Made by a program: the position numbers and the translations under genes. Below, piece by piece: positions 20,105 to 38,571 of a stretch of DNA of 64,000 nt; the stretch's first letter is position 1, and the number at the start of each line of letters is the position of its first letter. The DNA comes from Candidatus Obscuribacteraceae bacterium (GTDB lineage: Bacteria; Cyanobacteriota; Vampirovibrionia; Obscuribacterales; Obscuribacteraceae). Below the pieces are notes generated by a model. That model saw nothing but the letters and a program-made list of their open reading frames with translations. It searched no databases and was not told the DNA's origin. The DNA is taken from contig JBGAHS010000001.1 of assembly GCA_044226015.1 (NCBI GenBank), positions 384,001 to 448,000 on the forward strand. Direction: 5' to 3'.

Positions 20105-21811
20105 GTGCCCTTTGAAGAAGTGAAACTAAATCGAAGTAGCGAACTCGACAATCAAGCTGTCGAGTCGACTATGCACAAGCTTCAGAGAGAAGCTCACCTT
20201 CTTCTTGGTGGTGTCGGCGAAGGTACGGTTGATGCAGCCAGGCACTCGGTGTCGTCAAAAGAGGCGTGGGGAAGAACTCTTCTTAGTGTTGGAACAGCAG
20301 CTGCTTTGACTATAGCCATGAAGCGACCGGGAATGCTGGGCAACATTGGAAGAGGCGCTGGAACGCTCGGCGCAGCAAACTTCATTTATGATCTTGCGAA
20401 TCCCTACAGGCTAAGTGCCATGGGAGACGCGATTAGCGATACCTGGCAATCGGGAGCAAATTTCGATCGTAATTATGGCTTGATGAAAAAAGAGCTCGGC
20501 AAGCTCAGTTTTGATACCATGCTTGGTGTCGGTGGCGGTGCTCTAGGTGCAGGCTTCGCTAGCCGGTTTGCGCTAAAAAACTCAATTGCAGAGCCAATTC
20601 TGGGAAGGCAGGCGCAAGCTGTTGAGCCGCCCATTCTTGCGGATAAGACCAGTCTTGCAGCTGCTGAAATGACTCCTGCAGCTCAGCTGTCCCGTTTAGA
20701 AGCGACAAAGCCACTGGAGCTGCTAAGTACAGAAGCGCCGAAAGGTGCTGACGCCTTAAACGTTTTTAGCCGTTCAAATGAGCCTCTAGGTCGCGCTCTT
20801 TCTAATTTCGCTCATACACCTTTTGAACTTGATGGAGTAAAGTTTGCTTCGGTTGAAGCCTTCTATCAAGCTCTAAAGTATTTGGACCCAGTGAAGAGAG
20901 CCGAGATGGCACCACTTTGGGGCAGTTATGCTAAGTCGGCTGCTAACAAAGCACCGAAATTGAGCGAAACTTCTTATATGGGTGAAACAATTACCCTCGG
21001 CTCCAAAGAGCATCATGCTTTAATAGAACGTGCAATAAAGGCTAAATTAGAGCAGAATCCGAACGTTTTAGCGGGACTTCTTGAAACTGGCAATCGCCCA
21101 ATTGTTCATGACACTGGTAAAGGAATGAACTTTACTCGGCAGAGCAATTTCCCTGACCCTGTTTTTGCATCTATGCTTGAGAAAGTACGTGCGGACTACC
21201 AGGCTAAAGGCTTTGACGCAGGAAAGTTTAACCCATCTGCTCTTGATGTTATAGACGCAAAAGGTGGTAAATCGACGAGCGTGCCTGTTTCGATTCGCGA
21301 TACCGTCAGTGGTGCTGATAAAATATTCTTGAATCCTGTTGCTATCTCTGGAGAAGCAAATTTGAAATCTGTAGCAGATGCGCTGTCCACCATAAAGAGA
21401 CCAGAGCTTCATGAATGGCATAATTTAGAGGATTATTCTAGGGCTTTTGCGGGATTTGACCGCAAAGTTAGTTCTGTAGTCGGAGGTGGCTCCGACAGCA
21501 TTGCTCTTAAGCTTGAAGACGGCAATGTTTTGAAAATCACTACGAGAGACCTTCCGGCTGATTTGGGTTCTCGCCCGTTTGATCTGCCAGTCCTGGAACG
21601 CGGTTCTAAGCCCGTAGGCATCGGCGATATCAGTGTTAATTACTTCATTCAACCGTTCGCCAGCAAGCCTAAGCAGGGGCATTTAGGAATGGTTGCAGAC
21701 ACTATTAGCAAGAGTGGTTATAACTTTGTAGAGCCGTTCATTAGTCAAGTCGGAGTCTACAAAGGGCAAGCTTACTTGCTCGATCCGTTTGCGGTGAAAC
21801 CGAAAAATTAG
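20105..21811 (+). CDS. multidomain effector-like protein: Gly-rich helical N-domain, NADAR domain, kinase-like C-terminus
   Basis: NADAR motifs LSNFAHTPFELDGVKFASVEAFYQALK, AKLEQNP, LLETG; kinase-like VVGGGSDS...VLKIT...SQVG...LLDPF. Start at 20105 (GTG after GGAG) or 20096. Confidence 0.75.
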   Translation: MPFEEVKLNRSSELDNQAVESTMHKLQREAHLLLGGVGEGTVDAARHSVSSKEAWGRTLLSVGTAAALTIAMKRPGMLGNIGRGAGTLGAANFIYDLANPYRLSAMGDAISDTWQSGANFDRNYGLMKKELGKLSFDTMLGVGGGALGAGFASRFALKNSIAEPILGRQAQAVEPPILADKTSLAAAEMTPAAQLSRLEATKPLELLSTEAPKGADALNVFSRSNEPLGRALSNFAHTPFELDGVKFASVEAFYQALKYLDPVKRAEMAPLWGSYAKSAANKAPKLSETSYMGETITLGSKEHHALIERAIKAKLEQNPNVLAGLLETGNRPIVHDTGKGMNFTRQSNFPDPVFASMLEKVRADYQAKGFDAGKFNPSALDVIDAKGGKSTSVPVSIRDTVSGADKIFLNPVAISGEANLKSVADALSTIKRPELHEWHNLEDYSRAFAGFDRKVSSVVGGGSDSIALKLEDGNVLKITTRDLPADLGSRPFDLPVLERGSKPVGIGDISVNYFIQPFASKPKQGHLGMVADTISKSGYNFVEPFISQVGVYKGQAYLLDPFAVKPKN

Positions 21812-21911: not shown

Positions 21912-22358
21912 CTACATGCGGTGTTTGATTTCGTCCCAGTCAGGTATTTTACCCAGTACCGGTTCCAAAACGGCAACATTTAAGCGAGCACTTTTGTTTG
22001 CCACTTCCAGCGCCTGTTGTCGCAATGATGTATATTCTTCTTCAGTTAAAGAACGGATTTTTCGTTTGCCCAAATACTCTACTAACAAAAGTGGAATTCT
22101 ATCAGCGCCTTCGAAACGATCTGGAGGGTATTCGAGAAGCAGATACTCTCGCCCATTTGCCGGCATTCGTTGGTTCACCGCAAACCAGTATTCACTCTTG
22201 GCTGTTTCGTCTTGTTTCAGGCATAATTGCACCGATCGCGAACCGTAGCTGTAGCATTCAGTGATTGGTAGTATTGTATTTGGTGGCAAAACCTCGAGCC
22301 CGAAGCAAAGCTCGCGCATGATATCAAAATGTTCTGTGAATTCTTCAGTCGATGCCAT
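21912..22358 (-). CDS. hypothetical protein directly downstream of the giant gene (candidate immunity/partner)
   Basis: RBS GGAGAG; starts about 20 nt after the giant gene's stop. Confidence 0.65.
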   Translation of the reverse strand: MASTEEFTEHFDIMRELCFGLEVLPPNTILPITECYSYGSRSVQLCLKQDETAKSEYWFAVNQRMPANGREYLLLEYPPDRFEGADRIPLLLVEYLGKRKIRSLTEEEYTSLRQQALEVANKSARLNVAVLEPVLGKIPDWDEIKHRM

Positions 22359-22377
22359 CTTTCTCTCCAATCAATGT

Positions 22378-25300
22378 TTATAACTTATCTACAAACAACT
22401 CAGTACCTCGCCTCAACTGTGGATAGGTATGGAACGCAGAACTTCCGTTATTGGTGTCTTTCGTTCCAGTTCCACCAAGCATGAGCCGGTCTCCTGGTTT
22501 AATTTCCTGGGTTCCCACGAGAGCTTCCCACTTATCCGTGTTCGCTCTCATTATGTATGTTCCGTAAGTTGAGCCTTTGTCTTTGGCGTAAAGTTTGCCA
22601 GACGCGTCTTTGGTCAGCTGCAGATGTTCTCTGGAAACATTGCGATTAAAATACGGTGAAGCTACGTCTTCCAGGACATCTCGCTGATGATTGCGTCCAA
22701 TCTCCAGCGGAGTGCCATCAGCTTCCACTCTTAATTGCATTCCTCCGAAATCTATTTTGTTTGCAACGGCTTCGACCTTTGCCGGGGCTGAAGCGAACAA
22801 CTTCAATTCTGTGCCGTAGCGTTTAGCTGGGTCCGCATCCCACGCTACAGATGGAGTGTCGGAGGTTCCACCTAACATTACGCGGTCGCCTGGCTGTACT
22901 TCAGTCTTGCTTGTTACGGCTTCCCATCGATTGCTGCCATTACGCTGAATGTAGGTGCCGTTGCTGGAATTGTTGTCTGTTATGAATACTCTTCCATCTG
23001 CTTCGCGGTTGACGACTGCGTGAGAGCGCGACACGTTCTTATTATTGAACGGTGAGTTGTCAGCACCGAGGGTTTGTTGATGTGACCGGCCAACGCTGAG
23101 CGCTGGTCCGCCTGCTGCCAGGTCGAGCTGCTCGCCGCCGATGCCAATATTCACTTTGGCTTCTGGCGTTAACTTAGACCCCGGTGCAACCGGTGCCATG
23201 GGGGCATCGAATCCACTGGGCGATTTCACCGTACCAAGCAACAGGTCGGTGGGGTCTTTCCCTTCGGGCAAATATTTGTTCGCCAGGGCGTAATACGCTT
23301 GTCTGTCAGTCAAGTCTCCTGCTTGCTTGCTTGCGCTGCTTTCGTCCAGATATAAGCGGGGACCATCGCCTCCTTCCCTGACTCTGGATCCGTTAGACTG
23401 AGCTGCAAGCGAGAGGTTTGAGTCTCGGTCATAACCAAGTGTGTTAGGACGCAGTCCCGCATTCTTTTCCACTTGCCGTAATTGATCGCTTGTTAAACGC
23501 TCACCGGGCTTCAGTCCCATTTGCGAATGGATATGATCTGCCAGCGGTTTGTCGAGCTTCGCTGCAATATCGCTATCCATTCTTGTTATCTGGTAGAAGT
23601 CTCGAACGATGCCTACTCGGTTCGAGCTGCCAGTTACTTTGTCGATGTTTCCAGTGTCGATTGGTTTTGCTCGACCCAGATTTTTTTCCGTAAGTATTCT
23701 GTCTATTTCTTTTTGTACAGCAACCGCATCTTCCGGAGTCTTTGTGAATACGGTGAAACCTTTTGCTTCCTGTCCCTTTCCTGTTGGAGAGAAAGTGCCT
23801 TCTGGAGCCGTTCCTGCGCCGACTTTAGGATCGAATGTTTTCCATCCGTGAATCTTGGATGCTAGCGCTGGATTCTTTTCAAGCTCAGGAATCAGAGCCT
23901 CTTGCAATTTGCCGAGGTCTGCATTTCCATCTGTTGTCACATGAACTTTTACGGCTCCGGGTGGACCAGAATCGAGTTTTCCATAAAACCAATCTTGTTG
24001 CGGTGTTTTGATTAGTTTGAATTGATCGCCGTTGATTTCGACTTGCCGCAGGAATGGCATGTCGTTCGGCTCGCTGACTTTCATTCTCTTCGGAAATTCA
24101 GGTGCTGCATCCTTTGGAAGTGCTGCGCGATCGAATGCATCGATTTTAACTTCCGTGCCGAAGCGTTTTGCTGGATCTTTGTCTGCCACCGCAGATGGTG
24201 TCTCGCTGGTTCCGCCCAGCATTACCTTGTCTCCAGGCTGAACCTCGGTTCTTCCTGTCACTGTTTCCCACTTATCTGAGCCATTGCGCTTGATATAGGT
24301 TCCATTGCTGGAGTTATTATCAGTGATAAACACTTTGCCGTCGGCGTCTCGACTGAGCGTGGCGTGATTTCGAGATACATTCAAATTCTCGTGTGGGCTA
24401 TTCGACCCGAGAGAGGTTTGATGTGAACGTCCCAATGGAACTGAGGGACCGCCTGCTTCTAAATTGATTTTGTCGCCACCAATTCCAAGTCCGACATTTG
24501 CCTCTGCACTGAAAGATGGTTTTGCAGCCTGCGGGAGGGCTTGAACAGGTGGTGCTTCAAATTTTGGAGATTTGACCAGGCCCGCAGCTAAATCTGCAGG
24601 ACCTTGTCCTTCGGGAAGATACTTGTTTGACAGTGCGTAAAAAGCTTGTCTGTCCGTCAAATCACCAAATTCTTTTCCAGCCTTTCCTTCATCAAGGTAA
24701 ATGCGCGGACCGCTGCCGCCATCATGCATGCCGCTTGAGCGAGATTGTGCGATGAGCGAAAGATTGTTGTCCCTATCATAAGCGAGCGTTTCCGGTCTCA
24801 ACCCAGCCGCTTTTTCCACCTGTCGAAGCTGTTCGGGAGACAGCTTTTGACCAGGTTGCAAGCCCATTTGAGCCTGAATGTGCTCGGCTAGTGGTTTGTC
24901 CAATCGGGCTGCAAGATTGCCATCGACTTGAGTTGGTTCAAATTGGTCTCGAACGATTCCAACTCGGTTGGATGATCCTTTTATCTGGTCGATATTACCG
25001 GTGTCTATCGGTGTCGAACGACCCAGTCCTTTTTCAGTAAGTACTCTGTCAATTTCCTTCTGCAGAGCTACTGCATCTTCAGGAGTTCGGGCGTAGATTG
25101 TGAATGCTTTTGCTCCCTGTCCTTTGCCATTGGGCAACCATGCGCCTGGTCCTGCGTTACCAGCACCAATTTCGGGGTCAAATGTTTTCCAACCATGAAC
25201 TTTCGCTGCTAGTTCCGGATTCTTATTCAGTGCCGGAATTAATGCCTCTTGTAGCTTTCCAAGGTCTTGAACTCCGTCTGTCATCACATGGATTTTGACA

Positions 25301-28300
25301 GGAGCTTCCCCTTGGGCAAACTTACCGTAATACCAAACTTGAGGTCCGCCTTTGACCAGTCTGAAGTTTTCACCATCTATATTTACTTCGCGAACACCAG
25401 GCATATCTTCGGGAGAGCTGACTTTCATCTTAAGCCCTGGCGTTCCGTCATTAGGCACTACTGCAGCTTTGCGTTCGAGTGCTTCAATGTGCAGTTCTGT
25501 GCCACGTCGTTTGGCCGGGTTTGTTAGGAATTCTGAATCGCGAACATCTTGTGTGCCGGTTCCGGCCAACATCACTTTGTCGCCAGGTTTTATTTCTGTC
25601 TTCCCTTGCACCTTTTCCCAGTTGTTGGAACCGTCTCTCTTTATGTAAGTTCCTGCAGTTGAATTGTTGTCTGTGATGTAGACCTTGCCGTCGGAAGTCT
25701 GATGGATATGGCCATGTTCGCGTGAAACATTTGTATTGAAATGCTCCGACGAGGGGTTTGCTATTCCGTCCTGATGGTATCGTCCAAGTGGCACTGAAGG
25801 ACCACCCGGTTCAAGTTTTAGTTTCTCACCGCCGAGTCCAACGCTAGCGATTTCTTTTGTCGATGGAGGGAGATCGGCTACTGCTGCAGGCTTCGCAAGT
25901 GACTCCGGACGTGGAACTCGTCCACTTGCCAGGTCAACCGGATCGTAACCTTCGGGTAGATATTTGTTGGTTAGCGCGTACATTGCTTGTCGATCTGTGA
26001 GATCTCCAGCAGCTTTACTCGCGTTGCTTTCATCAAGATAAATTCGAGGTGTGCCGCGATCGCTTATTCTAGAATGACGCGATTGACCAAGTAGCGCAAG
26101 TTCCCCATTGCGATCATAAGCTAGGGTACCCGGCCTGATACCAGCGTCTTTTTCCACTTGTCTCAATTGAGCGTCAGTGAGCTTTTGTCCTTCCGGAACA
26201 CCTAATTTAGAATTGATGTGGGCTGCAAGTTCGCGATCTAAGAGGGCACCATCTACGGGGCTATTTGGCAGGTCTGCTGGATGGAAATAATCACGCACAA
26301 TTCCAACACGGTTTGAGCTTCCTCTGATCGAGTCAACGTTTCCTGTTGAAATTCCATGCTCTCTGCCGAGACCCTTAGCAGTTAGAATTTCGTCAATTCG
26401 CTTCTGAACTGCAAGCGCATCCTCTGCTGTTTTTGTGTACAGAGTGAATGCCTTCGCACTTTGCCCTACCCCATCTGGCGCTTTCTCGAGATTTCTTCCA
26501 ACACCAACTTCAGGGTCGAAAGTCTTCCAGCCTGAAACTTTTGCTGCTAATTCCGGATCGTTTTTCAGTGCAGGAATAATGGTCTCTTGGAGTTTGCCGA
26601 GGTCTGCAGCACCATCTGTCACTACATGTACTTTCGCAACAGCGCTTTCTCCCTCTGGGAATTTTCCGTAATACCAGAAATCGCGAGGCGGACGCATAAG
26701 GTCGAACTGTTGACCATTTATTTCGACCTTCTTCCAGGCTTCGCTGTCGGCATGTACTTTCATCTCTTTTGGGAAGTTCTTCGCCGCAGCTTCTCTTTCC
26801 AATGCTTCGGTCTTCAAGCCAAAGAGTTCGCGCGCGCCCTTATTTCCTGCCGGAACTTCGCCATCGGACTTCTTACCAAAGCCCCAGAGTGCTTCGTTGA
26901 CTGGTTGTTTTTGTCCTAGTTCTGGTGGCGTTTCAAGTTGTGGACGGATTTCGGCCGTATGATCAAATTTTGCCTTTGATTTGCCCCTTATGCCCGTGGC
27001 TTTTTGCAGTTCATCCAACATGTTCATGTTGTTGTTGGGGCCGCCATATGGAGTCAGGATATTTGTAGTTAGACCAGAGTCGTGTCCTGGTTTGAAGAGT
27101 TTATAGTTACCGAATACTTTTTCCTGATCTGTCAGTCCGAGACGTGCCAATGTTGCCGGGTCATACAATTGTTTGTATGTCTGATTAGATAGAACAGTGA
27201 CATCCATATCCTTCAATGGAAGGTAGCGAGAATCTTTTTGCCAGAGTAGCCATGGGTTCGTTTCGGTTTCAAATTTGCCCATGGTGGCAACTACAACTTT
27301 GCCACCAGATTGCTTCAGCATAGTGGCATTGTCTTTGACAACACCAGCAGCTTGCCGTCCGCTCAGGGAGAAGTCATCCAAGTAGACCAGAACCTTGCCT
27401 TTGGCACCATCTGGACCCAAAGCAGCCAGTTCTTTTGCTGTTATGAAATTAGCAGAGCCCAGATCGTTAGCTGTGGCGTACATTTTCGCCGAGATCATCT
27501 GGCTGCCAATATTGTCAATCTTATCTAAGGACTTGCCTGCTGCTTTTGCTGCGGCAATTTGTCCTTCGTATTCAAGTCCGGTCACAAGCATGATGTCAGA
27601 CGGCTTGGTGCCAGGCGGGAGCTCTGCCATAAGCTTCTGATGCAGTTCGTGGAATTCTTTGAGTTGTTGTGTATACGATTTGTACTCAACTCCATGTTCA
27701 AGAATTTGACCTGCAAATGACTTGATTTCTGGGCTCTTGATTGAAGCCAGATAAGACTCAAGTTGCTGCTTCGTCAGCTGAGGGGCAGTAAACTGATCGT
27801 ACATCGATCCGATTCTGTACTGTTCGCTACCTCCAACCTTATCTCGTAGTTGCTTTCCTGGTAGCTGCTGTTCTGGTTGCAGAACTGTCGTTTTTGGATT
27901 TATTTCCGTTGCTAGTTTCGCGGTGTCGCCTTCCAATATCTTCTTCACAGCGGCTTCACTGCTCAGACCTGGTTCAGCTGCTTGCAATGCCTTGGCTTTC
28001 TCTACTATTCCTGCAATCTTGTCTTGCATACCTTTGGTGCCTGCGAATTGGCTGGCACCAAAATCAATGAAATTGACTCCCTTGTCGAAACCGTTGATAT
28101 TGCTCACGTAGAGTCTGTCAACTTGAGAAAGAGCTTGCTTTTGCGCTGCAGTTGCAGTGCTCAGGTCGCCGAGAATTAGTGCACGATTTGGCATTCCTTC
28201 AGCTGCAAGTTGTTTCATTCCGGCAGCATCAAGAGTAACAACATGAACCTTGAGTTGATCTTGATTCTTTCTAAGTAATTGTGCCAGCATTTCAGCAGAA

Positions 28301-31300
28301 TCATTGCCACCCATTGAGAAGACTGTAATGCCCTCTTTGCGGAGTGCCGGGTCAATTTTGTCGAGTTGGGCTTGCAGGTTGCGGAGCTGATCGTCGAGAG
28401 CTCGTGGTGTCATATTCGGTGCGGACTGTTCCATGACTTCCATGGCCAGTTTTCTGTCGGCTTCGCTAAATCCTTTGAACATGTCCTCGAATTCAGCTTT
28501 TGTTATTGGTACCTCACGGGTGCCTTCCGAGAACTTTTTGGTTATGCGATCAATGCGTTCGAGATCCATCTTTTCGGCAGGATCATACGGTTTTACTGGC
28601 TGATCACCAGGCGTGTCTTTGGCGCGAACTGGAGCGTCGTCGACTTTCGGTCTGGTACCAGATGTGGCGTCGCCGCCCTCTTTGACCTGATGCGAAAGTC
28701 CGTATGCTTCTTTCTCGATTTGGTTAGTCGAATATGCGTTGATCAAGTCTTTATGAACCTGATTTACTTTCGCACCTTCACCTTCAAGGTGCTTAATCAA
28801 CGCTTGTCTTGCCCCTTCAGCGTCAAAGCTCTGTATGTGTCCGGCTTTGAAATCTTCCCATTGTTTAGCAAATTTCGATAACTCTTCTGATGGTGCAGTT
28901 TGACCAAACAATCTGGAAGCCAGCACATCACCTCCTGGCTCCTTCAAGAGATCATTAAACAATCGGTCAACCGCCTTGCCGTCAACATTTGCTTGAAGGT
29001 CTTTAAGCTTCGAATCAATGACTCTAGCCGAATTGCCTAACTGCTCTGACTTTGCTGCAACATCTGTCAGCGAGTTCTTGACACTCTTTGCGAGATCTCC
29101 AGCCCGTGCTATTTCATCGGCAGTGAGAGCACCTTTCTTCTCAGCCGATTGACTTACAGTCTTTAACCAATCAGCATTTAGATCGCGACCCGTCGCTTCC
29201 TTGTAGTGTGCCTGAACCGCAGCCACATCGCCGGCTTTGCCATCGGCTGCTGCCAGACGTTGAGCGTTGCGCACCAGAAGTTCGTCTTGTGCTGCTGCGT
29301 GAGTGAATTCATGGAAGGTCACCCTATTAAGTCCTGCGGCACCACCTGCCTCAGCTAAAGCATCCTTCGGTAATGTGATTACTCCTTCGCCGAATGTGTA
29401 GCCTCCAGCCGCGTGCATGTTTTCTGCCAGCTGTACTTTGACTGGTGGCAAGCCTCTTTCGCTTGCAAATTTATTGAGTTCTCGCTCTAATTCTTGTGCG
29501 CGCGCTTTAGATACCGCGGTAATCTCGCTGGTCAGATTCTTGTGTTTGTTAGCCAGCGATTTCCAATCTTCGCTGAGTTGATGAAGTTTGGAGTCCTTAT
29601 TAAGAGGATGATTCGCGTCACTTCGTGCCGCAGCAATGTCGGCTTCGGAAGCTCCGGATTGCTTTAATCGCGAAATTTCATTATCTAAAACCTGTTGAGC
29701 TTCTTTGACTTTCGGAGCCAATCCATCAGCTTCTTTGACTTTTGGACTGAGGTCATCCTTCCAAGATTCTCTGACCTTGCTCATGCGGGCACTGAAATCT
29801 TCAGCTGCTTCTTTTCCGAGTTGCGGAATTTTGTCATTCAACGCTTGCAATTCAGAAGCGCTCGGAGCTTCGATTTGCGGTCTGTAGGCTGAGTCAAATG
29901 GCTCTTCTGTTTTGAGGGCTGCAGCTTGCTTTTTCAAGTCGGGATGGAGATTGTCATTTGCCGGAACTCGTTCAGCAGGAGCCGGACCGTCTTTAACAAC
30001 GCTTGGTCCATCTTTCACGCCTGTCGCGGGGGTATCTTTTACAGCTGTCGCAGGCGCGTCTGTGGGAAGAACCTTGCCTTCATTTACCCTAGCTTTGTCG
30101 AATACATCTTTCAGTTCACCAGCAGCGGTGCTTCCGCTGCCAGGGTGTAATTGTCCGCTGGGCTTGCTGGGAACATGTGCTTTTGCTACATCGGCGGTCA
30201 CTGCGCCCAGTCCAGCCGTTCCTGCTACTACTTCCGGAACGACATGATCTCCTTTTGGAACCGGCACAGAAGGATGTTCTCCTCCCTTGAATGCCATTCC
30301 GACTCCTTTGAATGCCGTGCTCATGACACCAGTGAAGACGAATCCTTGAGCGAATGCGATCTGTAGCGATTTGCCGTCAATCTTGCCGTCGTCAATTAGC
30401 TGTCGTCCACCTTCACCTATGGTATTACCGATGCCACCAACAGTAGAGTGCACGAGTAGGTTTGCTGCCTCTGTCTTCAATATCTGTGCAGTACTTGCAC
30501 CCGCCAAATGCGTGGCTTCTTTGAACCCTAAGTTGCCCGCGCCGAACTGGTTCGAAAATGCAAGCGCGGTGTATTTGAATGCATCCCCAGCGAATTCCTT
30601 AGCTCCGTTGGTGTCATTTCCCATCAAGCCATACTTTAATGTCGCTGCTCCCAACCCCATAACAGTAGAAATTCCGGCTAGAGCGTAAAGACTAGCCCCT
30701 GCAGTGAACGGGGCTGCCACCAAGGAGACGCCTGTAACGACGCCTGTCACCACGGTATCTGTTGTGGCTTGCTTTGTGTCCTTAAAGCTCTTTACTCTGT
30801 CTTCTGTATTTGCGGCAAGTTCATTTAACGTTTTTACATCTAGTGTCTTGCCGTTAGAAGTGGCCTCATAGATTTTTCGGTTGAAATCGTTTAGTGCTTC
30901 AATATGAGTAGTGTTGTAATTGCTTGCCATGCGCGCTCCAAGTCCAGCGTCTGTAGCAGAAACTGTCTTGATAGCGTGTAAATGTTCTTTGTCTTGCGTC
31001 CAGTCTTTGTGTCTGGTTGCACGGAATACTTCATCGTACTCTTTGTTGTCCACTTGTTTGAGCATGCTGGCTCTGAAGTTTTCGTATTTCGCTTCGTAGC
31101 GATTTTGAATTTCTACGCGAGGTCCTTCCTCAGTCATAGACTTCATTAAGCCTATGGCTTCTTCTTTTGTCACGCCCGCATTTAGTGTAAATGCACGCAG
31201 TTTGTCCTCTGGTTTAACTTCACCTTGCTTCAAAATGTTTTGAGCAAGTTCGTAAACTTCTTTTGGTCCGGCATTTTTTAAGGTCTCGAGCATCTTCGCT

Positions 31301-34300
31301 TTTTCAGCTGCACCTTCCGGTGAATTCAAATAAGCTAGTGCGCGAGGCGAAGCATCCAGAACTCCTTCTTTAAAGTAGCCCCTTGAGTCGAAAATTGGCG
31401 CTCCGCTTTCCTGATCATATGAGGTATGTTTTTCTTTCAAAGTATCACTGGTCAACCTGCCTGTTTCGAGCAGAGGTTTGACCTGTTCGTTGAATGCTTT
31501 CTCGGCTGCTGCGTCATCTCGTCCAGACTCTCTCTTGAATGCTTCGATGGCTGCTTTTTTGAATTCCGGGTCTTCAGCCAATTTACGGGATTCACTGCCG
31601 TCTTTGTCGCCCTTGATTGCATCGGTGATGATCTTTGTGGCGCTCTTATCTGAGTAACCATCAAGCCCGGCTGCTTTTGCTAGAAGTTGTTCTTTTGCTC
31701 CCATAACAGGTGCTGCTGGAACTGCATCTTTACTCGTTTCAACTTGCTTGAGCAAGCTGTCTATCAGTTTATAGCGGGCATTATCTTCGGCTCCGTTCGA
31801 GAATTTTTCTTTGAATTGATCGCGCAGTGCCTTTCTTGCTGCCTCTCCTTCCGGAGTCTGGCTGGCGAGTAACTTTCGATCTTCTGCTTTCATGTTGAGC
31901 ACAGCATCAACCATGGCTTTGCGATCGTTACCCCAGAAACTCTCATTGTCTTTTAGTTTGGTTTCTAGAGAGCGACCAGTAGTTTGTTGGACAGCGTCAT
32001 AGATTCCTTTCTGGTAGGCTTCAAGAGCTTTGCTACCAGGTTCTGAGAGTTGCTTGTTGAAACCTTCTCGCTGCCTTTCGATGACTTGATTTTTCAAGGC
32101 TGGAGTCAGTCCTTCGATTTCTTTTGCATTTTGCTTGTAAAAATCAATGGCTGCTTGCTGTTCTGGGGTTGGCTTCTTACCTGCCAGCTCTTTTTCGAGC
32201 CGCTGTCCTTCGAAGAGCCTGTCGGCGCGTGAACCGCTTTCAATATCATTCAGTTGTTTAGCAACGGCTCGGCCTTCCATGAAAGGACGAACCACCTTAT
32301 CCTGCTGGTACGCCTCGAGCTGTTTGCGCTGGTCGCCGGTCAAATCGCTGTCTTTGATTTTTCCTGAGGCCAGGTCTTGTTGCAAGCGATAACCGGCTCC
32401 GATGTCTTTGTATTGTGATTCAGGAATATTTCCGAATGCCGGTACTTTCTGCCTGAGGGCATCGAGATCGCCTTTGTCAGCAGCCTCGTTTATGGAAAGT
32501 CCTTTTGCAACTTTCTCGTCAAGAAGTTTTTGTGCCTTCTCTATATACTCTCCACCGCCAAGATTCTTTTCTAGAGCGGTAGCCATTTGCTTGTGAAATT
32601 CAGACGCGTACTCGCGTTTGTCTCCAGGAACACCACCTGTGATACTATTGTCCGCGCCCGCTGTACCGCGACTTCCCGCAAGCAACTGGTTAAATGTTTT
32701 CTGGTCCATTGACTCAATGGCCTGGGCATTCACCTGATTGCTATTGAACCAATGTCCTCCAATTGGAGCAACTTTTGCGGCAACGTCAGTGCCACCCTTG
32801 TGAAGAGTCTGGTCGATGTATTTTTCGACCTTTTTGTCAACTCCAAAATAGTGAAGTGACTTGAAAGAGTCCATCATGTCGTTATAGAACTTCAGCGCCT
32901 CTTGTTCTTTTGGCGTGAACTTCGCCCGTTCTTCAGGGCTAGCTTTTGCTAGTTTCGCTCCATCAGCAAATTGAGCTCGTTTCTCTGACTTCAATCCGGC
33001 CAAAGTGTGCTCGATCACATTGTCATCATTGCTAAACACGCCTGCCGCTTTCTGAATTTGCGTATGCGGGCGTAGTGCGCCGGTCTCCGCAAAGTCGGTT
33101 GCCTGCTGCACGGCAAATTTGTCGACTTCTTCCCAGGTATTTCCTGCCTCGTCTGCTCTCGTAGTCGTGAATGCCTGCGTGATTTTTTCTTGTCCGCCGT
33201 TTTTGGTCCAGGCTTCTCTGCCGCTGTCTTTCACGAGGCTGGTAGCTTCCTGGAAGTAGTCCAATTTGCGACCACCAGACAGAGCTGCGTCGAGAATTTT
33301 TCCTTCCTCTTCGGCTGTACGAATATCTTTGCCTTTCTCTAGCGAAATGCTGAGCACGGCTTTCGTATAGGCATCGCGTTCCATGATGCCACTACCCGAG
33401 CCACCAGGCTGGAACTGCGATTTTAGATCTTTGTTGTAGATGTTATGGAATGCGTCCACATAATTCTTGCGCTCTTGCTCGGTAGCGTTCCCGAGTATAT
33501 TGCGTGTGCTTGCAGCTATTTCTGACTGGCTGCGATCTCGGTTCCAGAACCAGCGGCTTGATTCCTCGGCGTTGACAGCAAGCTGAATGGCTTTGTCTTC
33601 TCCCGCGTTACCTTTACGGTTTAAGTACCCTTGCACTTCTGCCCAGCGGTGTGTATCAGAGCCTTCGTCGAAGCGTTTGTAGAGGTCTCCCCAGAGTCCA
33701 TGTCCAGTGCGGTCTTGGTACACATGTTTCAACATGTGTGTTTGCTCTGCATCGAGGTCGGCAAGCTGAGCGCGAATGTCTTTTATTGCGTTTGAGTTGT
33801 ACCAATAATCGATTGTCTTTCTGATTTCATCGGCATTGCTGGCGATGGCTTTGTCGGTGCGCTCTACTTTTGTTCCGTCAAGTGCGTACTCAGCGACGCT
33901 GCCATAATAATGTTTGTCGGTAAGCTTGCCGGTATTCTGGTCAACAGAAGTGAATCCCTTCCACTGTTTTCCTGTACCATCTTGGGTCCAGTTGAAGCCG
34001 TCATATGTTCGGTAGGTGCTGGCTGTGGGTCCTTCGCCGTAAGTGACTTCACTCAGGCGATTTGGGCGACCAAGAAGATCTTTATTGTTTGGCAACTCAT
34101 ATTTATAGCTGCGCAGGAAGCCGTTGGCGTCTCTGGTCGAGCCTATCAGCCCATCCGGACGATATTCGATCATCGAGCCGTCGGTATTTTTAACTAACTT
34201 TGTTTTGTCCAGCCTATCTGTTAGCTCGAAGCCATTTTCTCCCTTCAATGACATGCTGCCATCTTTACCGACACTGAACATTCCTGGTCTGACGTCGTTT

Positions 34301-37300
34301 GTTTTATTCGGGTCTTCGTTCTTGTACATCACCTGCCCTTTGTCGAGGGCGGCTTTGTCGAGAGAGTATTTGTTGCCGTTATCGTTGAATGAAGTGACTA
34401 GGTTCGGGTATTTCTCATTTTCATAAGCAAATGATCGTTTGAAAGGACCCTTGCTTACCTCGGTTGTACGTCCTAAAGCATCTGTTTTCTGCACAGTTCC
34501 GTCAGGCGATTTTATTTCTCTGCCCGTATATTTGTTTTGGGCGTCGTACTGGTAGTTGGTCTCCGTAAAACTGCCTTTGCCGTCAGGCACCTTTTCAGAC
34601 AACTTTCTGCCATCAGCGCTGATCGTTGCAGATGAACCATCTGTGCTGGTTCGCTCGATAGTACTGGGCGACTTTTCGTTATTCTGCTTAAGCAAGTTCC
34701 CTTGCGAATCAAAACCAACTGAGAATTTTTGAGGATTTGTAGCTTTGTCCTCTGTTCCGTCAGCGTTATGCTTAGTCCAGGTTTTGTTATCAGCTGATGT
34801 CCAATACGCGCCTTTCTCTTTAGGATCTTCAAAGCGGTTAGGTTGCTTATTGTCGCCATAAGCAACTTTATATTGTTCCTCGCCTATCTTCAGGCTGGTG
34901 TATCGCCCGCCTTCGGCTTTCAGAGTGCTGCCGTCTGTCTTGCGAATCTCCTCAACCGCTTTGCCATCTACTTTCTTTTGCTCAACTAGGTCTCCATTCG
35001 GAGTCAAGGAGAATGTTGCGGTTTTTGTTTCAGGTGGATTCGTTCCGTCTTTAGTCCAGGTTTTGCCACCATCAGCAGTGCTAAGCTTGCCTTCCTTTCC
35101 GAGGTCGATTTTGGAGAGAACGCCCTTAGCATCATATTCGAACTTGCGAACCTGTCCGTCAGTTGTTTTAGTCTCGACGATTTGTCCGAGGTCATTTTTT
35201 GTGACAGTAGATTTGTCTGCGTTGGTTTTGCTTAGCAGTCGCTGACCGTTTTCACCTTGCGTTTCCTGCCATCCATCTCGCCGTGTGACGGTTTCTGCTG
35301 CGCCTTCGTTTTTAATTCGAAGCGTGCCTTCTTTATCAACGCTTCTGGTGCCCTCAACAATTTTGCTTGTGCCATCTTGCGCCCAGCGCTCATGAGCTTG
35401 CTTTTTGTCATCCATGCGATCGGGCAACCGGCTGAACGAGGTGCCATCAGGCATCTTCATTCCGGTGAGTCTGCTGTTCGCATCATAGGTGTAACTAGTG
35501 GTCTTTCCATCGGGTGTGGTCGTGCTGCGTACGTTCTGCTTTTCGTCTCGTTCGACCGTTGAGCCGTCCACATTGTGCACAAGTTCGCCTTTGCTGGCGC
35601 TGTCCGCAAAGTGCAGATTTCCGCTCTTGTCCATGCTGAACTCGCCTTTACGCTGAAGTCCATCATTGGAGGTCCATACATCTTCTTTGCCAGCTTCCTT
35701 ACTGCGAGTCCAGACCTGATCACCGACTCTAGCCTCGCTCACCTTTGCGGGAGCGTCTGGTTTTGCCGGATCCTTCTCCGTCTTCACCGCGAGCCTGACA
35801 CCATCAGCGGTGCTCGATTGTTCGGCTTCACCCGCTTTGTTGTAACTAACACTGGTTCCATCGTTATTTAGAACTGTTTTCTCGCCACCAGAAGAGATAG
35901 TGATTGCATCTCTCGTTCTAGTCAGTACTTTGTTCTGTGAACGAAACTCATAGTCGCCGTTTGCTTTCACAGTCGGGGTGCCGTCGATTTTAATTCCGGT
36001 TCCTGCCTGCTTGAATGTTTTTCCGCCGTCACTTGACTCGAAACTATTAGGACCGAGGCTATCATTTATTTTTGTTATGTTGCCCTTTGCGTCGCGCTCA
36101 ATGCTGACTCTCTGTCCATCGCGATCCACCTGCATAACACGATCATTATTGTCGTACTGCGCAACGGTCTTTCCATCCGCTGATCTTGTTTCTTTGCCGA
36201 GGTAATCGCCTTGCTCGTTTCTCTTAAAGGTTGTTTTCGTGCCGTCTGCATTTTCTGAACTCAATTCGGTTCCTTTGGCATCATACTGATGCTTGGTGCC
36301 TTTTGAGTCGACAAGCTCTGAGCTTCCATCAGCCTTTTTAAAGCTGATGGATTTGTTGTCTTTGTCTACGGTCACACTGTCGTATTGTTTTTTGTCGCCG
36401 TTATACCAGCCATCAGCACGTTTTTCGAGCACCGATTTATCTGGCATTGTAATTTTGCTGGGCTCGCCAGCCGGTTCGTATTTGATTCCAAACTTTTGCT
36501 TGCCTGCCGCTATTTCGCTCAGGTCGTGATTCTTATCCGTGGTGACCAGTGAGCCGTCGGTTTTGTGCTCGACTTCAGTTCCATTCTTATAAACATCAGT
36601 GACTTTACCGTCTTCGACTTTGACGGTGCCATCCCAGTTTTGCTTCGTACCATTCGGAAGCGTTTTTTCCCACTTCGTTTTGTCTGCGTCTACAGCGTCC
36701 CACTTGCCGTTGCCGTAATCAACTGAACTGGGCTGCTTCTCATCGCCTTTATAACCAAGAGTAGTCTTGCCACCTAATCTGTCTGTGATATGCTCGGGGC
36801 GATCTTGCGAGTCGTAATTAATTTTTGAGCCATCGAGTTGCCTGGACTCGTGCTCGCCGCTCTTCGCTTTGCTATGAAGTGCACCTTTTTCGTCAACCCA
36901 GCGCTCACCTTCAAAGGTTTTGCCGGTGTTTTCGTTTTTCCAGCTGCCGTCTTTTTGTTTTGACCAGCTGCCGTCGGCGTCTGTGTAAGAACTCAGCTTG
37001 CCGTTTTTATCTAACTTGTAGCTGGTCTCTTCTCCGTTTGCGCCTACGGTCTTGATAGTTTGTTTGTCAGCACTTGTGGTGATCTTCGAGCCATCGGAAT
37101 TGAAGCTTGTTTCATCAATTAACTTCTTTTTGGCATCAAGGTGCTTTTCAGTCTTGCTAATTTCCGAGCCGGGAGGGAACTCTCTTGTGCTCGTGAACGT
37201 GCCATCGCCGTGCTTTTGCAGCTTTTCAGGGTCGCTTTTCGCTTCGGCGACTTTTTCGCCTTTGGGTCCAGGTTTTGCCTCTCCAGCTTTAGTCCCGTCA

Positions 37301-37575
37301 CCGGGTTTAGCTTCGCCTGCTTTTGTTTTGTCGCCCTTGTCTGCCTTCTCAGTTTCTTTCTTTTTCTCTTCGTCAGTCTGCCCTTCAAGAGCTTTTTTGG
37401 GCTTTCCATTAGAGTCCACCACTGTCGTGTTCGGCAGTGTCTTGCTGGCATCTTCTTCGGGCTTTTTCGGCGCCGGCGTCTCTAACGCTTCCTTTGCAAG
37501 CGCGCTGGAGGCTGCGTCTTTAGACTTATCCTCTGGTTTGTCTTTCTCTTTTTTACTCTCGTCTACATCTGCCAT
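22378..37575 (-). CDS. 5065-aa multidomain effector/toxin-like protein: YD-like repeats, annexin-like repeats, hydrophobic helices, HExxH peptidase, PRTase-like, (pThr-lyase-like + FHA)x3 + FHA
   Basis: Uninterrupted ORF. Motifs: TTSYTYDANSRLT and RKFEYDAKG repeats; HEFTH at aa 2755; VYLDDFSLSG at aa ~3400; KVH/KIH at aa 3648, 4094 and 4543; four GR...VSRxH...SxxGTY FHA motifs. Confidence 0.9.
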   Translation of the reverse strand: MADVDESKKEKDKPEDKSKDAASSALAKEALETPAPKKPEEDASKTLPNTTVVDSNGKPKKALEGQTDEEKKKETEKADKGDKTKAGEAKPGDGTKAGEAKPGPKGEKVAEAKSDPEKLQKHGDGTFTSTREFPPGSEISKTEKHLDAKKKLIDETSFNSDGSKITTSADKQTIKTVGANGEETSYKLDKNGKLSSYTDADGSWSKQKDGSWKNENTGKTFEGERWVDEKGALHSKAKSGEHESRQLDGSKINYDSQDRPEHITDRLGGKTTLGYKGDEKQPSSVDYGNGKWDAVDADKTKWEKTLPNGTKQNWDGTVKVEDGKVTDVYKNGTEVEHKTDGSLVTTDKNHDLSEIAAGKQKFGIKYEPAGEPSKITMPDKSVLEKRADGWYNGDKKQYDSVTVDKDNKSISFKKADGSSELVDSKGTKHQYDAKGTELSSENADGTKTTFKRNEQGDYLGKETRSADGKTVAQYDNNDRVMQVDRDGQRVSIERDAKGNITKINDSLGPNSFESSDGGKTFKQAGTGIKIDGTPTVKANGDYEFRSQNKVLTRTRDAITISSGGEKTVLNNDGTSVSYNKAGEAEQSSTADGVRLAVKTEKDPAKPDAPAKVSEARVGDQVWTRSKEAGKEDVWTSNDGLQRKGEFSMDKSGNLHFADSASKGELVHNVDGSTVERDEKQNVRSTTTPDGKTTSYTYDANSRLTGMKMPDGTSFSRLPDRMDDKKQAHERWAQDGTSKIVEGTRSVDKEGTLRIKNEGAAETVTRRDGWQETQGENGQRLLSKTNADKSTVTKNDLGQIVETKTTDGQVRKFEYDAKGVLSKIDLGKEGKLSTADGGKTWTKDGTNPPETKTATFSLTPNGDLVEQKKVDGKAVEEIRKTDGSTLKAEGGRYTSLKIGEEQYKVAYGDNKQPNRFEDPKEKGAYWTSADNKTWTKHNADGTEDKATNPQKFSVGFDSQGNLLKQNNEKSPSTIERTSTDGSSATISADGRKLSEKVPDGKGSFTETNYQYDAQNKYTGREIKSPDGTVQKTDALGRTTEVSKGPFKRSFAYENEKYPNLVTSFNDNGNKYSLDKAALDKGQVMYKNEDPNKTNDVRPGMFSVGKDGSMSLKGENGFELTDRLDKTKLVKNTDGSMIEYRPDGLIGSTRDANGFLRSYKYELPNNKDLLGRPNRLSEVTYGEGPTASTYRTYDGFNWTQDGTGKQWKGFTSVDQNTGKLTDKHYYGSVAEYALDGTKVERTDKAIASNADEIRKTIDYWYNSNAIKDIRAQLADLDAEQTHMLKHVYQDRTGHGLWGDLYKRFDEGSDTHRWAEVQGYLNRKGNAGEDKAIQLAVNAEESSRWFWNRDRSQSEIAASTRNILGNATEQERKNYVDAFHNIYNKDLKSQFQPGGSGSGIMERDAYTKAVLSISLEKGKDIRTAEEEGKILDAALSGGRKLDYFQEATSLVKDSGREAWTKNGGQEKITQAFTTTRADEAGNTWEEVDKFAVQQATDFAETGALRPHTQIQKAAGVFSNDDNVIEHTLAGLKSEKRAQFADGAKLAKASPEERAKFTPKEQEALKFYNDMMDSFKSLHYFGVDKKVEKYIDQTLHKGGTDVAAKVAPIGGHWFNSNQVNAQAIESMDQKTFNQLLAGSRGTAGADNSITGGVPGDKREYASEFHKQMATALEKNLGGGEYIEKAQKLLDEKVAKGLSINEAADKGDLDALRQKVPAFGNIPESQYKDIGAGYRLQQDLASGKIKDSDLTGDQRKQLEAYQQDKVVRPFMEGRAVAKQLNDIESGSRADRLFEGQRLEKELAGKKPTPEQQAAIDFYKQNAKEIEGLTPALKNQVIERQREGFNKQLSEPGSKALEAYQKGIYDAVQQTTGRSLETKLKDNESFWGNDRKAMVDAVLNMKAEDRKLLASQTPEGEAARKALRDQFKEKFSNGAEDNARYKLIDSLLKQVETSKDAVPAAPVMGAKEQLLAKAAGLDGYSDKSATKIITDAIKGDKDGSESRKLAEDPEFKKAAIEAFKRESGRDDAAAEKAFNEQVKPLLETGRLTSDTLKEKHTSYDQESGAPIFDSRGYFKEGVLDASPRALAYLNSPEGAAEKAKMLETLKNAGPKEVYELAQNILKQGEVKPEDKLRAFTLNAGVTKEEAIGLMKSMTEEGPRVEIQNRYEAKYENFRASMLKQVDNKEYDEVFRATRHKDWTQDKEHLHAIKTVSATDAGLGARMASNYNTTHIEALNDFNRKIYEATSNGKTLDVKTLNELAANTEDRVKSFKDTKQATTDTVVTGVVTGVSLVAAPFTAGASLYALAGISTVMGLGAATLKYGLMGNDTNGAKEFAGDAFKYTALAFSNQFGAGNLGFKEATHLAGASTAQILKTEAANLLVHSTVGGIGNTIGEGGRQLIDDGKIDGKSLQIAFAQGFVFTGVMSTAFKGVGMAFKGGEHPSVPVPKGDHVVPEVVAGTAGLGAVTADVAKAHVPSKPSGQLHPGSGSTAAGELKDVFDKARVNEGKVLPTDAPATAVKDTPATGVKDGPSVVKDGPAPAERVPANDNLHPDLKKQAAALKTEEPFDSAYRPQIEAPSASELQALNDKIPQLGKEAAEDFSARMSKVRESWKDDLSPKVKEADGLAPKVKEAQQVLDNEISRLKQSGASEADIAAARSDANHPLNKDSKLHQLSEDWKSLANKHKNLTSEITAVSKARAQELERELNKFASERGLPPVKVQLAENMHAAGGYTFGEGVITLPKDALAEAGGAAGLNRVTFHEFTHAAAQDELLVRNAQRLAAADGKAGDVAAVQAHYKEATGRDLNADWLKTVSQSAEKKGALTADEIARAGDLAKSVKNSLTDVAAKSEQLGNSARVIDSKLKDLQANVDGKAVDRLFNDLLKEPGGDVLASRLFGQTAPSEELSKFAKQWEDFKAGHIQSFDAEGARQALIKHLEGEGAKVNQVHKDLINAYSTNQIEKEAYGLSHQVKEGGDATSGTRPKVDDAPVRAKDTPGDQPVKPYDPAEKMDLERIDRITKKFSEGTREVPITKAEFEDMFKGFSEADRKLAMEVMEQSAPNMTPRALDDQLRNLQAQLDKIDPALRKEGITVFSMGGNDSAEMLAQLLRKNQDQLKVHVVTLDAAGMKQLAAEGMPNRALILGDLSTATAAQKQALSQVDRLYVSNINGFDKGVNFIDFGASQFAGTKGMQDKIAGIVEKAKALQAAEPGLSSEAAVKKILEGDTAKLATEINPKTTVLQPEQQLPGKQLRDKVGGSEQYRIGSMYDQFTAPQLTKQQLESYLASIKSPEIKSFAGQILEHGVEYKSYTQQLKEFHELHQKLMAELPPGTKPSDIMLVTGLEYEGQIAAAKAAGKSLDKIDNIGSQMISAKMYATANDLGSANFITAKELAALGPDGAKGKVLVYLDDFSLSGRQAAGVVKDNATMLKQSGGKVVVATMGKFETETNPWLLWQKDSRYLPLKDMDVTVLSNQTYKQLYDPATLARLGLTDQEKVFGNYKLFKPGHDSGLTTNILTPYGGPNNNMNMLDELQKATGIRGKSKAKFDHTAEIRPQLETPPELGQKQPVNEALWGFGKKSDGEVPAGNKGARELFGLKTEALEREAAAKNFPKEMKVHADSEAWKKVEINGQQFDLMRPPRDFWYYGKFPEGESAVAKVHVVTDGAADLGKLQETIIPALKNDPELAAKVSGWKTFDPEVGVGRNLEKAPDGVGQSAKAFTLYTKTAEDALAVQKRIDEILTAKGLGREHGISTGNVDSIRGSSNRVGIVRDYFHPADLPNSPVDGALLDRELAAHINSKLGVPEGQKLTDAQLRQVEKDAGIRPGTLAYDRNGELALLGQSRHSRISDRGTPRIYLDESNASKAAGDLTDRQAMYALTNKYLPEGYDPVDLASGRVPRPESLAKPAAVADLPPSTKEIASVGLGGEKLKLEPGGPSVPLGRYHQDGIANPSSEHFNTNVSREHGHIHQTSDGKVYITDNNSTAGTYIKRDGSNNWEKVQGKTEIKPGDKVMLAGTGTQDVRDSEFLTNPAKRRGTELHIEALERKAAVVPNDGTPGLKMKVSSPEDMPGVREVNIDGENFRLVKGGPQVWYYGKFAQGEAPVKIHVMTDGVQDLGKLQEALIPALNKNPELAAKVHGWKTFDPEIGAGNAGPGAWLPNGKGQGAKAFTIYARTPEDAVALQKEIDRVLTEKGLGRSTPIDTGNIDQIKGSSNRVGIVRDQFEPTQVDGNLAARLDKPLAEHIQAQMGLQPGQKLSPEQLRQVEKAAGLRPETLAYDRDNNLSLIAQSRSSGMHDGGSGPRIYLDEGKAGKEFGDLTDRQAFYALSNKYLPEGQGPADLAAGLVKSPKFEAPPVQALPQAAKPSFSAEANVGLGIGGDKINLEAGGPSVPLGRSHQTSLGSNSPHENLNVSRNHATLSRDADGKVFITDNNSSNGTYIKRNGSDKWETVTGRTEVQPGDKVMLGGTSETPSAVADKDPAKRFGTEVKIDAFDRAALPKDAAPEFPKRMKVSEPNDMPFLRQVEINGDQFKLIKTPQQDWFYGKLDSGPPGAVKVHVTTDGNADLGKLQEALIPELEKNPALASKIHGWKTFDPKVGAGTAPEGTFSPTGKGQEAKGFTVFTKTPEDAVAVQKEIDRILTEKNLGRAKPIDTGNIDKVTGSSNRVGIVRDFYQITRMDSDIAAKLDKPLADHIHSQMGLKPGERLTSDQLRQVEKNAGLRPNTLGYDRDSNLSLAAQSNGSRVREGGDGPRLYLDESSASKQAGDLTDRQAYYALANKYLPEGKDPTDLLLGTVKSPSGFDAPMAPVAPGSKLTPEAKVNIGIGGEQLDLAAGGPALSVGRSHQQTLGADNSPFNNKNVSRSHAVVNREADGRVFITDNNSSNGTYIQRNGSNRWEAVTSKTEVQPGDRVMLGGTSDTPSVAWDADPAKRYGTELKLFASAPAKVEAVANKIDFGGMQLRVEADGTPLEIGRNHQRDVLEDVASPYFNRNVSREHLQLTKDASGKLYAKDKGSTYGTYIMRANTDKWEALVGTQEIKPGDRLMLGGTGTKDTNNGSSAFHTYPQLRRGTELFVDKL

Positions 37576-38379: not shown

Positions 38380-38571
38380 ACAAATTATTGCTTCTTGCGA
38401 TATTGTCCGGGCTGCTAATACTTCGCAGCGGTACACGATTATGCAGTGCTGCCCAGTAATCGCCGTACATTTTATTTGAATCTCGCTCATAATTTTTGAT
38501 CAACGTGATCTTACGGTGGGCTAGGCGCGTAGTTAGTCTTAACCTCTTTTTGTTGGTTGAGGGCAGTCGCA

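Follow-up and report, generated by a model that had tools for sequence, protein, structure and literature searches.

MARTX toxins are giant single chains with GGxGxD repeats, a cysteine-protease domain, and several stacked, exchangeable effector domains. Polymorphic toxin systems, as presented in the main text of PMC3482391, combine a constant N-terminal part with variable C-terminal toxins, follow a toxin-then-immunity gene order, and may carry YD repeats and an annexin domain ahead of the enzymatic domains; "lyase" is nowhere mentioned in the first 300,000 of its 357,715 characters. In polyvalent proteins, according to the portion of PMC5512222 considered here, many enzymes share one chain with one to several HExxH zincins between them, for which self-processing or effector roles are proposed. 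Phosphothreonine lyases are described so far, in the portions of PMC4159009 and PMC2843593 used here, as enzymes acting on eukaryotic MAP kinases or in lanthipeptide maturation.

The 5,065-residue protein analysed here has features in common with each of these systems. It is encoded in the window (the whole 64,000-nucleotide stretch of DNA that was analysed) of a genome of 13 contigs (8.19 Mb, 92% complete) from Ca. Obscuribacterales, the non-photosynthetic sister group of the cyanobacteria. Like MARTX toxins, it is a giant single chain with repeats, several stacked, exchangeable effector domains, and an internal protease candidate. In contrast to them, it contains no GGxGxD motif (0 occurrences), carries its payloads at the C-terminus, has a linked gene for a predicted inhibitor, and possesses no cysteine at all, and hence no cysteine-protease domain; membership of the MARTX group was rejected on the missing repeats and protease. 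It shares with RHS/YD toxins the YD repeats, which score above the cut-off, but not the PxxxxDPxG core or a T6SS marker, and its payload of approximately 2,500 residues is placed after a helical and hydrophobic region. With 0 occurrences of DPxG and no match to RHS-core models in Pfam and NCBIfam scans of the protein, it was not counted as an RHS-core toxin. Many enzymes per chain and, by sequence, one or more HExxH zincin domains that each have a distal Glu recall the polyvalent proteins, from which it differs in its chromosomal, syntenic setting, membrane hairpin, YD stalk, and partner gene. Assignment to that group was rejected because no relatives of the lyase domain were found in viral contigs, the flanks of the syntenic locus in a related genome (G007) are chromosomal, and the source genome has no VirB4.

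The two core marks of polymorphic toxin systems are present, namely C-terminal toxin domains exchanged behind a constant N-terminal part, and a small 3′ gene that tracks a toxin domain as judged by gene context and a predicted complex. The protein differs from those systems in having no recognised trafficking domain or machine and in stacking many payloads with FHA targeting domains. The conserved carrier, the swappable payloads, and the predicted blocker gene make a weapon against neighbouring bacteria likely, and we consider the protein to be probably an antibacterial toxin of the polymorphic, multi-payload kind, whose phosphothreonine lyase is guided by FHA domains and countered by a cognate immunity protein. 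The sequence-only reading had proposed a delivery scaffold with translocation helices and payloads, in its logic like MARTX or polymorphic toxins but matching neither. The logic of carrier, hairpin, and payloads and the separation from MARTX and RHS-core toxins stand, but the separation from polymorphic toxins does not, since their broad definition fits.

An intact gene with a constant carrier and shuffled payloads

The ORF and the parts ahead of its C-terminal third are as follows.

22378..37575, minus strand: whole ORF, giant polymorphic 5065-aa protein with several payloads (ATG start; intact in an independent strain)
37216..37575, minus strand: aa 1–120, low-complexity charged head, no signal peptide (composition, hydropathy)
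33826..37215, minus strand: aa ~121–1250, YD/RHS-type beta repeats without RHS core (Pfam RHS_repeat, TIGR01643, self-repeats)
31216..33825, minus strand: aa ~1251–2120, conserved helical region (Pfam in relatives; model of aa 1870–2435)
31003..31215, minus strand: aa 2121–2191, annexin-fold repeat (VIA Z 10.9, in the tool's warning range for helical domains; rmsd 1.9 over 70 residues)
30772..31002, minus strand: aa 2192–2268, three-helix bundle (model)
30187..30771, minus strand: aa 2269–2463, Gly/Ala-rich hydrophobic helical hairpin and weaker hydrophobic helices (hydropathy, model)
28570..29805, minus strand: aa 2591–3002, zincin-like metallopeptidase domain (H2755-E2756-x-x-H2759 and E2954)
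26929..28518, minus strand: aa 3020–3549, two-part module with a PRTase-CE-like domain at its end (PF24390)

The ORF is real and intact. In run X2, which belongs to another study, the gene is covered colinearly by abutting contigs with zero joints, and a single contig runs across the PRTase region, all the repeats, and the downstream gene. Run X1, which may be the source run, closes a gap of 12 nt in X2; runs X5 and X6 cover mere scraps of the gene. The X2 strain shows 151 differing positions over 6,224 nt in the contig with the repeats, and 52 over 8,445 nt in the one with the carrier. Among the 40 differences listed (250 more lie beyond these), 35 are in the gene, of which 28 are silent. This comparison speaks against the misassembled chimera that had been named earlier as a refuting outcome of read mapping.

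The first 60 residues consist of D, E, K, or R to 43% and contain no hydrophobic core (max KD11 0.69), which indicates that a Sec signal is absent; in 16 full-length members the maximum does not exceed 0.81. Of the 28 DG[ST] motifs in the protein, 24 lie within aa 93–1233, where approximately 2 are expected by a hand estimate from the amino-acid composition. Matches to Pfam RHS_repeat (E 1.8e-23) and TIGR01643 (E 4.2e-19) identify these as true YD/RHS repeats, and the region likely forms a stalk or shell. Annexin repeats are weakly matched in the following helical region (E 0.005) and exceed the Pfam cut-off in relatives. The structure model of aa 1870–2435 (pLDDT 80.8; the last 88 residues are below 50 and unreliable) contains an annexin repeat, a three-helix bundle, and a long hydrophobic hairpin. 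The five-helix annexin fold is displayed by one repeat, aa 2121–2191, for which the top four rows of the VIA structure search are annexins/giardins, in agreement with the Pfam annexin matches of relatives.

The hydrophobic segments comprise aa 2270–2314 (nt 30768–30634) and weaker stretches at aa 2404–2429 and 2445–2463. Their hydrophobicity is moderate, with a max KD19 of 1.66 here and 1.19–2.18 in 34 members, and the hairpin region (aa 2269–2463), which weakly matches ApoL (E 0.007), is predicted to be the membrane-insertion part. Foldseek returned zero matches at E ≤ 0.001 for the helical-hairpin model, so that no pore-forming toxin fold is shown, and an initial hairpin scan of the genome contigs found nothing. 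Much of what had been read from the letters was borne out by these measurements: the charged head, the absent Sec signal, the DG[ST]/YD repeats lacking an RHS core, the absence of RTX nonapeptides and of DPxG, the helical region (by the structure model, for aa 1870–2350), and the hydrophobic segments at ~30630–30760.

Across the family, members retain the carrier, made up of the charged head, YD repeats, annexin-like repeat, and hydrophobic hairpin, but differ in the arrangement of their payloads. The stretch aa 1270–2430 is present in 17 of the 24 other genomes of the same family and in none of 16 from other families; the source genome has four carrier-family members, and open frames of the family reach 13,687 aa. 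Four homologues share their N-terminal ~1,800–2,600 aa at 45–60% identity and then diverge into different C-termini, the pattern for which a search of relatives had been suggested. The modules that follow the hairpin (zincin, FHA, PRTase-like, and lyase) vary in kind, number, and order (protein P0010, for example, has the layout carrier-zincin-lyase-FHA-FHA), and the payloads recognised by Pfam in relatives include zeta toxin, patatin, a papain-fold deamidase, a transglutaminase-like domain, and DSP phosphatases. In another family of the class, a profile of the region with the annexin repeat and the hairpin matches 17 of 73 genomes (E 1e-13 to 1e-3), mostly over the hairpin part. Five of the six loci fetched from that family encode a protein of 790–1,240 aa with a variable tip, in one case an ADP-ribosyltransferase exoenzyme.

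In the zincin-like domain, H2755, E2756, and the distal E2954 are invariant in 18 of 18 copies. No match of note was found for it in Pfam or the PDB, the sole outside lead being LPD23 (Atlas, 0.87), and we regard it, from its motif, as a candidate self-processing protease or payload. PF24390 scores 21.9 bits on this protein, below its 27-bit cut-off, and exceeds the cut-off in three relatives (L034, L047, and the C12 paralogue). No significant match was obtained in PDB sequence searches that used domains or profiles of the lyase, the zincin, and the PRTase, and an immunity gene was identified for neither the zincin nor the PRTase payload.

Lyase-fold and FHA repeats of the C-terminal third

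The C-terminal third is composed of three tandem repeats of ~450 aa, each a lyase-fold domain followed by an FHA domain and mutually 52–67% identical, plus a fourth FHA domain.

25936..26718, minus strand: aa 3620–3880, phosphothreonine-lyase-fold domain 1 (K3648, H3650, K3684, Y3713; profile alignment)
25486..25848, minus strand: aa 3910–4030, FHA 1, without the conserved Asn (motifs)
24595..25377, minus strand: aa 4067–4327, lyase-fold domain 2 (K4094, H4096, K4130, Y4161; the copy that was folded)
24142..24495, minus strand: aa 4361–4478, FHA 2, GR, SxxH, and NGT motifs intact (motifs)
23248..24033, minus strand: aa 4515–4776, lyase-fold domain 3, Phe in place of Tyr (self-repeat, motifs)
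22798..23154, minus strand: aa 4808–4926, FHA 3, motifs intact (motifs)
22390..22761, minus strand: aa 4939–5062, FHA 4, without the conserved Asn (motifs)

The sequence-only reading had placed stacked enzymatic domains here. Payloads are indeed present, and the C-terminal third is in part FHA rather than enzymes throughout. The lyase-fold and FHA identity of the repeated payload and the small gene linked to the lyase had both gone unnoticed in that reading. FHA domains bind phosphothreonine through GR, SxxH, and Asn residues; the set is complete in FHA 2 and 3, and the Asn is missing in FHA 1 and 4.

The lyase-fold domain (~270–280 aa, 163 representatives) was modelled from copy 2 with a pLDDT of 97, and the model displays the SpvC/LanKC fold of the phosphothreonine lyase superfamily. 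The top Atlas matches were OspF/VRP3/RamC_N (0.85–0.89), taken as a lead only. Foldseek gave five matches at E ≤ 0.001, all of them LanKC, followed by SpvC, VirA, and OspF. In the VIA search, the top six of 48,161 chains share the fold (Z 10.0–7.7, rmsd 2.9–4.4) and consist of LanKC lyase domains, LxmKY, a Pseudomonas syringae effector (4rsw, which we take to be HopA1), and SpvC. The similarity is remote, with an rmsd of ~3–4 Å and a TM of ~0.3 by query length.

The catalytic set of K104, H106, K136, and Y158, given in the portions of PMC4159009 and PMC2843593 used here, has its equivalents in K3648, H3650, K3684, and Y3713. A profile alignment paired K3684 with SpvC K136 and Y3713 with Y158 at E 0.008 (the best of 20 shuffled controls reached E 0.085), and the equivalence of K104 and H106 comes from motif spacing and fold rather than from pairwise alignment; a direct pairwise profile comparison of a 5-row alignment with SpvC was weak (E 0.076). 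All four residues are retained in 107 of 135 homologue rows, and the family has three further conserved basic positions. In the present protein, the four are complete in copies 1 and 2, and copy 3 has Phe for Tyr. The positions of the SpvC phosphotyrosine pocket are variable, the commonest residue occupying 18 of 133 rows at F100 and 36 of 138 rows at K134; at the position equivalent to K160, K or R is found in 68 of 140 rows. Pfam VRP3 (PF03536) matched none of 63 lyase members, and RamC_N weakly matched two. Membership of the OspF/SpvC family (MAPK lyases, Pfam VRP3) was rejected on these grounds, namely the lost pocket and the 0 of 63 matches to PF03536. From the conserved residues, the domains are predicted to act like SpvC, yet they stand outside the SpvC family. 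The fold and the residues lead us to predict that they strip phosphothreonine irreversibly by beta-elimination.

With SpvC/OspF/HopAI1 and the LanKC/LanL lyases, the domains share the fold, the K/H/K/Y positions, and conserved arginines (as given in the consulted portions of PMC4159009 and PMC2843593). In contrast to these enzymes, they form a separate clade with ~100 extra C-terminal residues and no phosphotyrosine pocket, stand in tandem with FHA domains, are accompanied by a partner protein, and are neither linked to a T3SS nor located in a peptide cluster. The lyase domain is matched by 27 genome loci, of which 20 (best identity 53%) are labelled as Ca. Obscuribacter, Obscuribacteraceae, or Obscuribacterales and seven carry broader or different labels.

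A small gene that tracks the lyase

21912..22370, minus strand: 152-aa ORF (147 aa from ATG), predicted cognate inhibitor of the lyase (context, predicted complex)

This ORF begins 7 nt past the stop of the 5065-aa ORF, and its family, which is unnamed, had no match of note in Pfam or NCBIfam. The small family tracks the lyase and not the carrier. A profile from five seeds found 13 members among the fetched loci, 11 of them directly behind a lyase-bearing gene; for the non-seed members the count is seven of eight, some being near-duplicates. Because these loci were mostly fetched via the lyase, the association is biased and less biased tests weigh more. In a search of the whole genome (16,661 ORFs), the three strong matches were the genes behind the three lyase carriers, with one extra marginal match (E 9e-4), and the fourth carrier of the genome has neither a lyase nor a small gene. 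Across 41 genomes, the family occurred only in lyase-bearing ones (three of seven). The syntenic locus of G007, at which the carrier is 56% and the two flanks are 55% and 49% identical, has neither the lyase nor the small gene. Among 17 held-out loci, the family was present in eight and absent from six, and three loci are cut off; five of the eight matches are near-copies of training loci, and the other three are new and adjacent to a lyase gene.

The predicted complex of the small protein with the lyase scored 0.86, compared with 0.00 for the best control. The mark for this score was reached by 116 of 157 solved pairs and 2 of 215 mismatched pairs, counts that are only rough with the alignments used. 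The runs agreed in at least 97% of contacts, and the pLDDT of the partner was at least 85. The predicted interface includes K4094, Q4153, T4159, Y4161, D4210, Y4293, and E4296, with the K104 and Y158 equivalents among the residues covered; the catalytic base K4130 and H4096 lie outside the confidently placed contacts. The small protein is thus predicted to bind across the active-site face of the lyase. Loci L107 and L139 encode the small domain as a fusion with a kinase-like domain, and lyase-like fragments adjoin the small gene; these fusions are not accounted for by an inhibitor role.

Export, targets, and competing explanations

Searches for secretion markers narrowed the possible routes of export. 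No match to FlhA/SctV (T3SS) or the contractile-sheath family turned up in 25 family genomes, nor to TssC (T6SS) in 41 genomes; VirB4 occurs in 2 of 24 family genomes, neither of which has the carrier, and not in the source genome. No type I HlyD match exceeded the cut-off (22 were weaker), and the T7SS-type FtsK marker was not found. Two Tad loci and one type IV pilus locus are present, and scattered TadE/TadG-like genes 3 kb from the giant ORF are its sole tie to pili. In Myxococcus, a Tad-like machine reportedly kills prey on contact. After these searches, the remaining candidates are export through Tad or type IV pili and liberation by cell lysis. With a hairpin but without a signal peptide, the whole protein could also stay in the cytoplasm.

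The source genome encodes at least 150 Ser/Thr kinases (all 150 scored candidates matched, of 175 candidates in this one genome), so that an unguarded lyase would likely harm its maker. Kinase-rich relatives would be rich targets, if the count from this one genome is a guide. A linked immunity gene is a mark of conflict among related bacteria, according to the main text of PMC3482391, and the probable victims would be kin or other kinase-rich bacteria.

We put forward, tentatively and as somewhat short of probable, a fuller account in which the giants are self-translocating interbacterial weapons with an uncharacterised exit route, which permanently erase phosphothreonine signalling in kinase-rich bacteria by means of FHA-guided lyases and are held in check by immunity proteins. 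In the antibacterial reading that we hold to be probable, exchangeable enzymes would enter a neighbouring cell by means of the conserved carrier, a signal-peptide-free route taking the protein to its target. There, the YD repeats would present the toxin and the annexin-like repeats would bind the membrane, into which the hydrophobic hairpin would insert and pass the C-terminal half across. The zincin may cut the payload string loose. The FHA domains would steer the lyase domains onto phosphothreonine proteins, and the lyases are predicted to remove phosphate from pThr/pSer by beta-elimination; the dehydro residues that result are no longer open to phosphorylation by kinases. The small downstream protein would cover the active-site face of the lyase and thereby protect the producer and its clones.

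Searches of the openly accessible literature listed no account of this family and none of a phosphothreonine lyase directed against bacteria, although the supplements of PMC3482391 and PMC5512222 might list such domains. If real, a bacteria-directed phosphothreonine lyase with a natural protein inhibitor would be a new toxin chemistry in bacterial competition, and the pair would provide the first inhibitor structure for the phosphothreonine lyase class. The host is uncultured, and the 280-aa lyase and 147-aa partner are small enough for assay. The family also raises the question of how proteins of up to ~13,000 residues are exported without a signal peptide in a lineage lacking the injection markers searched for.

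The carrier might instead deliver its payloads to protists, algae, or fungi, with the lyase striking MAPK-type signalling as SpvC and OspF do and the small protein acting as a chaperone or a guard against self-damage. The patatin and deamidase payloads of relatives fit such an effector, as does the class itself, one member of which is reportedly a predator of algae. Host MAPKs are the substrates of those stand-alone lyases that have been characterised (consulted portion of PMC4159009), and a part in the breaching of membranes by toxins has been proposed for annexin domains (main text of PMC3482391). However, the SpvC pocket residues F100 and K134 are not conserved, searches of the carrier genomes for T3SS, T4SS, and T6SS markers were negative, and a linked inhibitor is typical of kin conflict. 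The zeta toxin payload, whose target is a cell-wall precursor, also argues for bacterial victims, and we consider an anti-eukaryote role unlikely. Equally improbable in our estimation is a complex that is never exported and sits at the inner face of the membrane for defence or control, silenced by the small protein and shutting down the cell's own kinase signalling upon attack by phage or epibionts. Such a complex would explain why neither a signal peptide nor a delivery machine was found; a hairpin leaves both ends of the chain on one side, the cell's own kinase network would be a sufficient target, and the gene order is toxin-antitoxin-like. Against this, the hairpin is Gly/Ala-rich and only moderately hydrophobic, the 1,100 aa of YD repeats and the near absence of Cys fit exported toxins, and another family of the class has shorter proteins with a hairpin and a variable tip, one of them an ADP-ribosyltransferase exoenzyme.

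Two further explanations have far less to recommend them than the antibacterial toxin that we favour. The best fold matches, LanKC lyase domains and LxmKY, together with the fusions of the small domain to kinase-like domains in L107 and L139 and a kinase-like gene behind the lyase giant in L075, would suit a kinase-lyase dehydratase resembling the class III–V lanthipeptide enzymes, in which a kinase is brought to the lyase through the small domain and dehydro residues are made in a peptide or target protein. Such an enzyme is very improbable here, since no kinase or cyclase was detected among the 40 window ORFs scanned or inside the lyase carriers, the catalytic Asp is missing from two of the three kinase-like domains nearby, and the lyases sit amid unrelated toxin domains. 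An adhesin-like surface protein or an assembly chimera, to which the long repeat region and the metagenome-assembled source could be taken to point, is hardly credible and has been largely refuted: the independent strain is colinear without joints and differs mostly silently, independent proteins such as P0010 have these modules behind the same carrier, and the catalytic residues are conserved.

Giant proteins and their neighbours

The source genome (G000) holds 78 open reading frames of at least 1,500 aa, the longest of 14,391 aa, and most of them begin with a signal-peptide-like stretch and resemble one another in a motif at the C-terminus. These signal-peptide-like proteins with the common motif are a class separate from the carrier giants. 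Members of the giant family, which shares the N-terminal carrier of the 5065-aa protein, have open frames of 13,687 aa (G021:C3) and 13,497 aa (G002:C209), with many zincin copies; the loci are L039-L044. Short proteins with the hydrophobic hairpin and a variable tip (loci L133-L136 and L138) occur in relatives with small genomes that belong to another family of the class; their tips include an ADP-ribosyltransferase and an HExxH domain.

A second unnamed family of about 175 aa, with 7 copies in G000, sits after several giant family members. Copies were located at:
L036:3384-3911
L048:14658-15179
L051:11475-11999
L068:11915-12436

Ser/Thr kinase domains number at least 150 in the whole G000 genome. 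Atypical kinases or pseudokinases adjoin giant FHA proteins at the following positions, and in two of the cases beside these proteins they are fused to the partner domain, the predicted lyase inhibitor family:
L107:9014-10618
L139:671-2284
L075:11887-12882
G000 C9:344111-345966

Strain differences within the lyase repeats

Differences between the window strain and the independent-study strain form dense clusters at 23371-23669 and 24766-25063, within copies 2 and 3 of the phosphothreonine-lyase-fold domain. Since these clusters are dense and mostly silent, recombination between repeats or strains is suggested.

Other genes of the window

Further genes were as follows:
302-1507 (-), STM4014-family ATP-grasp gene
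5582-5962 (+), tmRNA
6144-6626 (-), lone HipA N-terminal domain gene
16605-19371 (-), TadE / TadG-vWA / TadE-like triplet
20096-21811 (+), hydrophobic Gly/Ala-rich N-half and NADAR-like domain
38557-39573 (+), hydrophobic Gly/Ala-rich N-half
53411-55689 (-), 593-aa ORF with a BURPS668_1122-type deaminase tip, SUKH/SMI1 gene next

The deaminase-tip ORF and the SUKH/SMI1 gene are a classical toxin-immunity pair. The N-regions of the two Gly/Ala-rich ORFs have three paralogues each in G000, one of them common to both, and these ORFs possibly represent a second, small polymorphic family. The Tad-like triplet stands apart from both full Tad loci of G000 (C9 380-387 kb and C11 221-228 kb).
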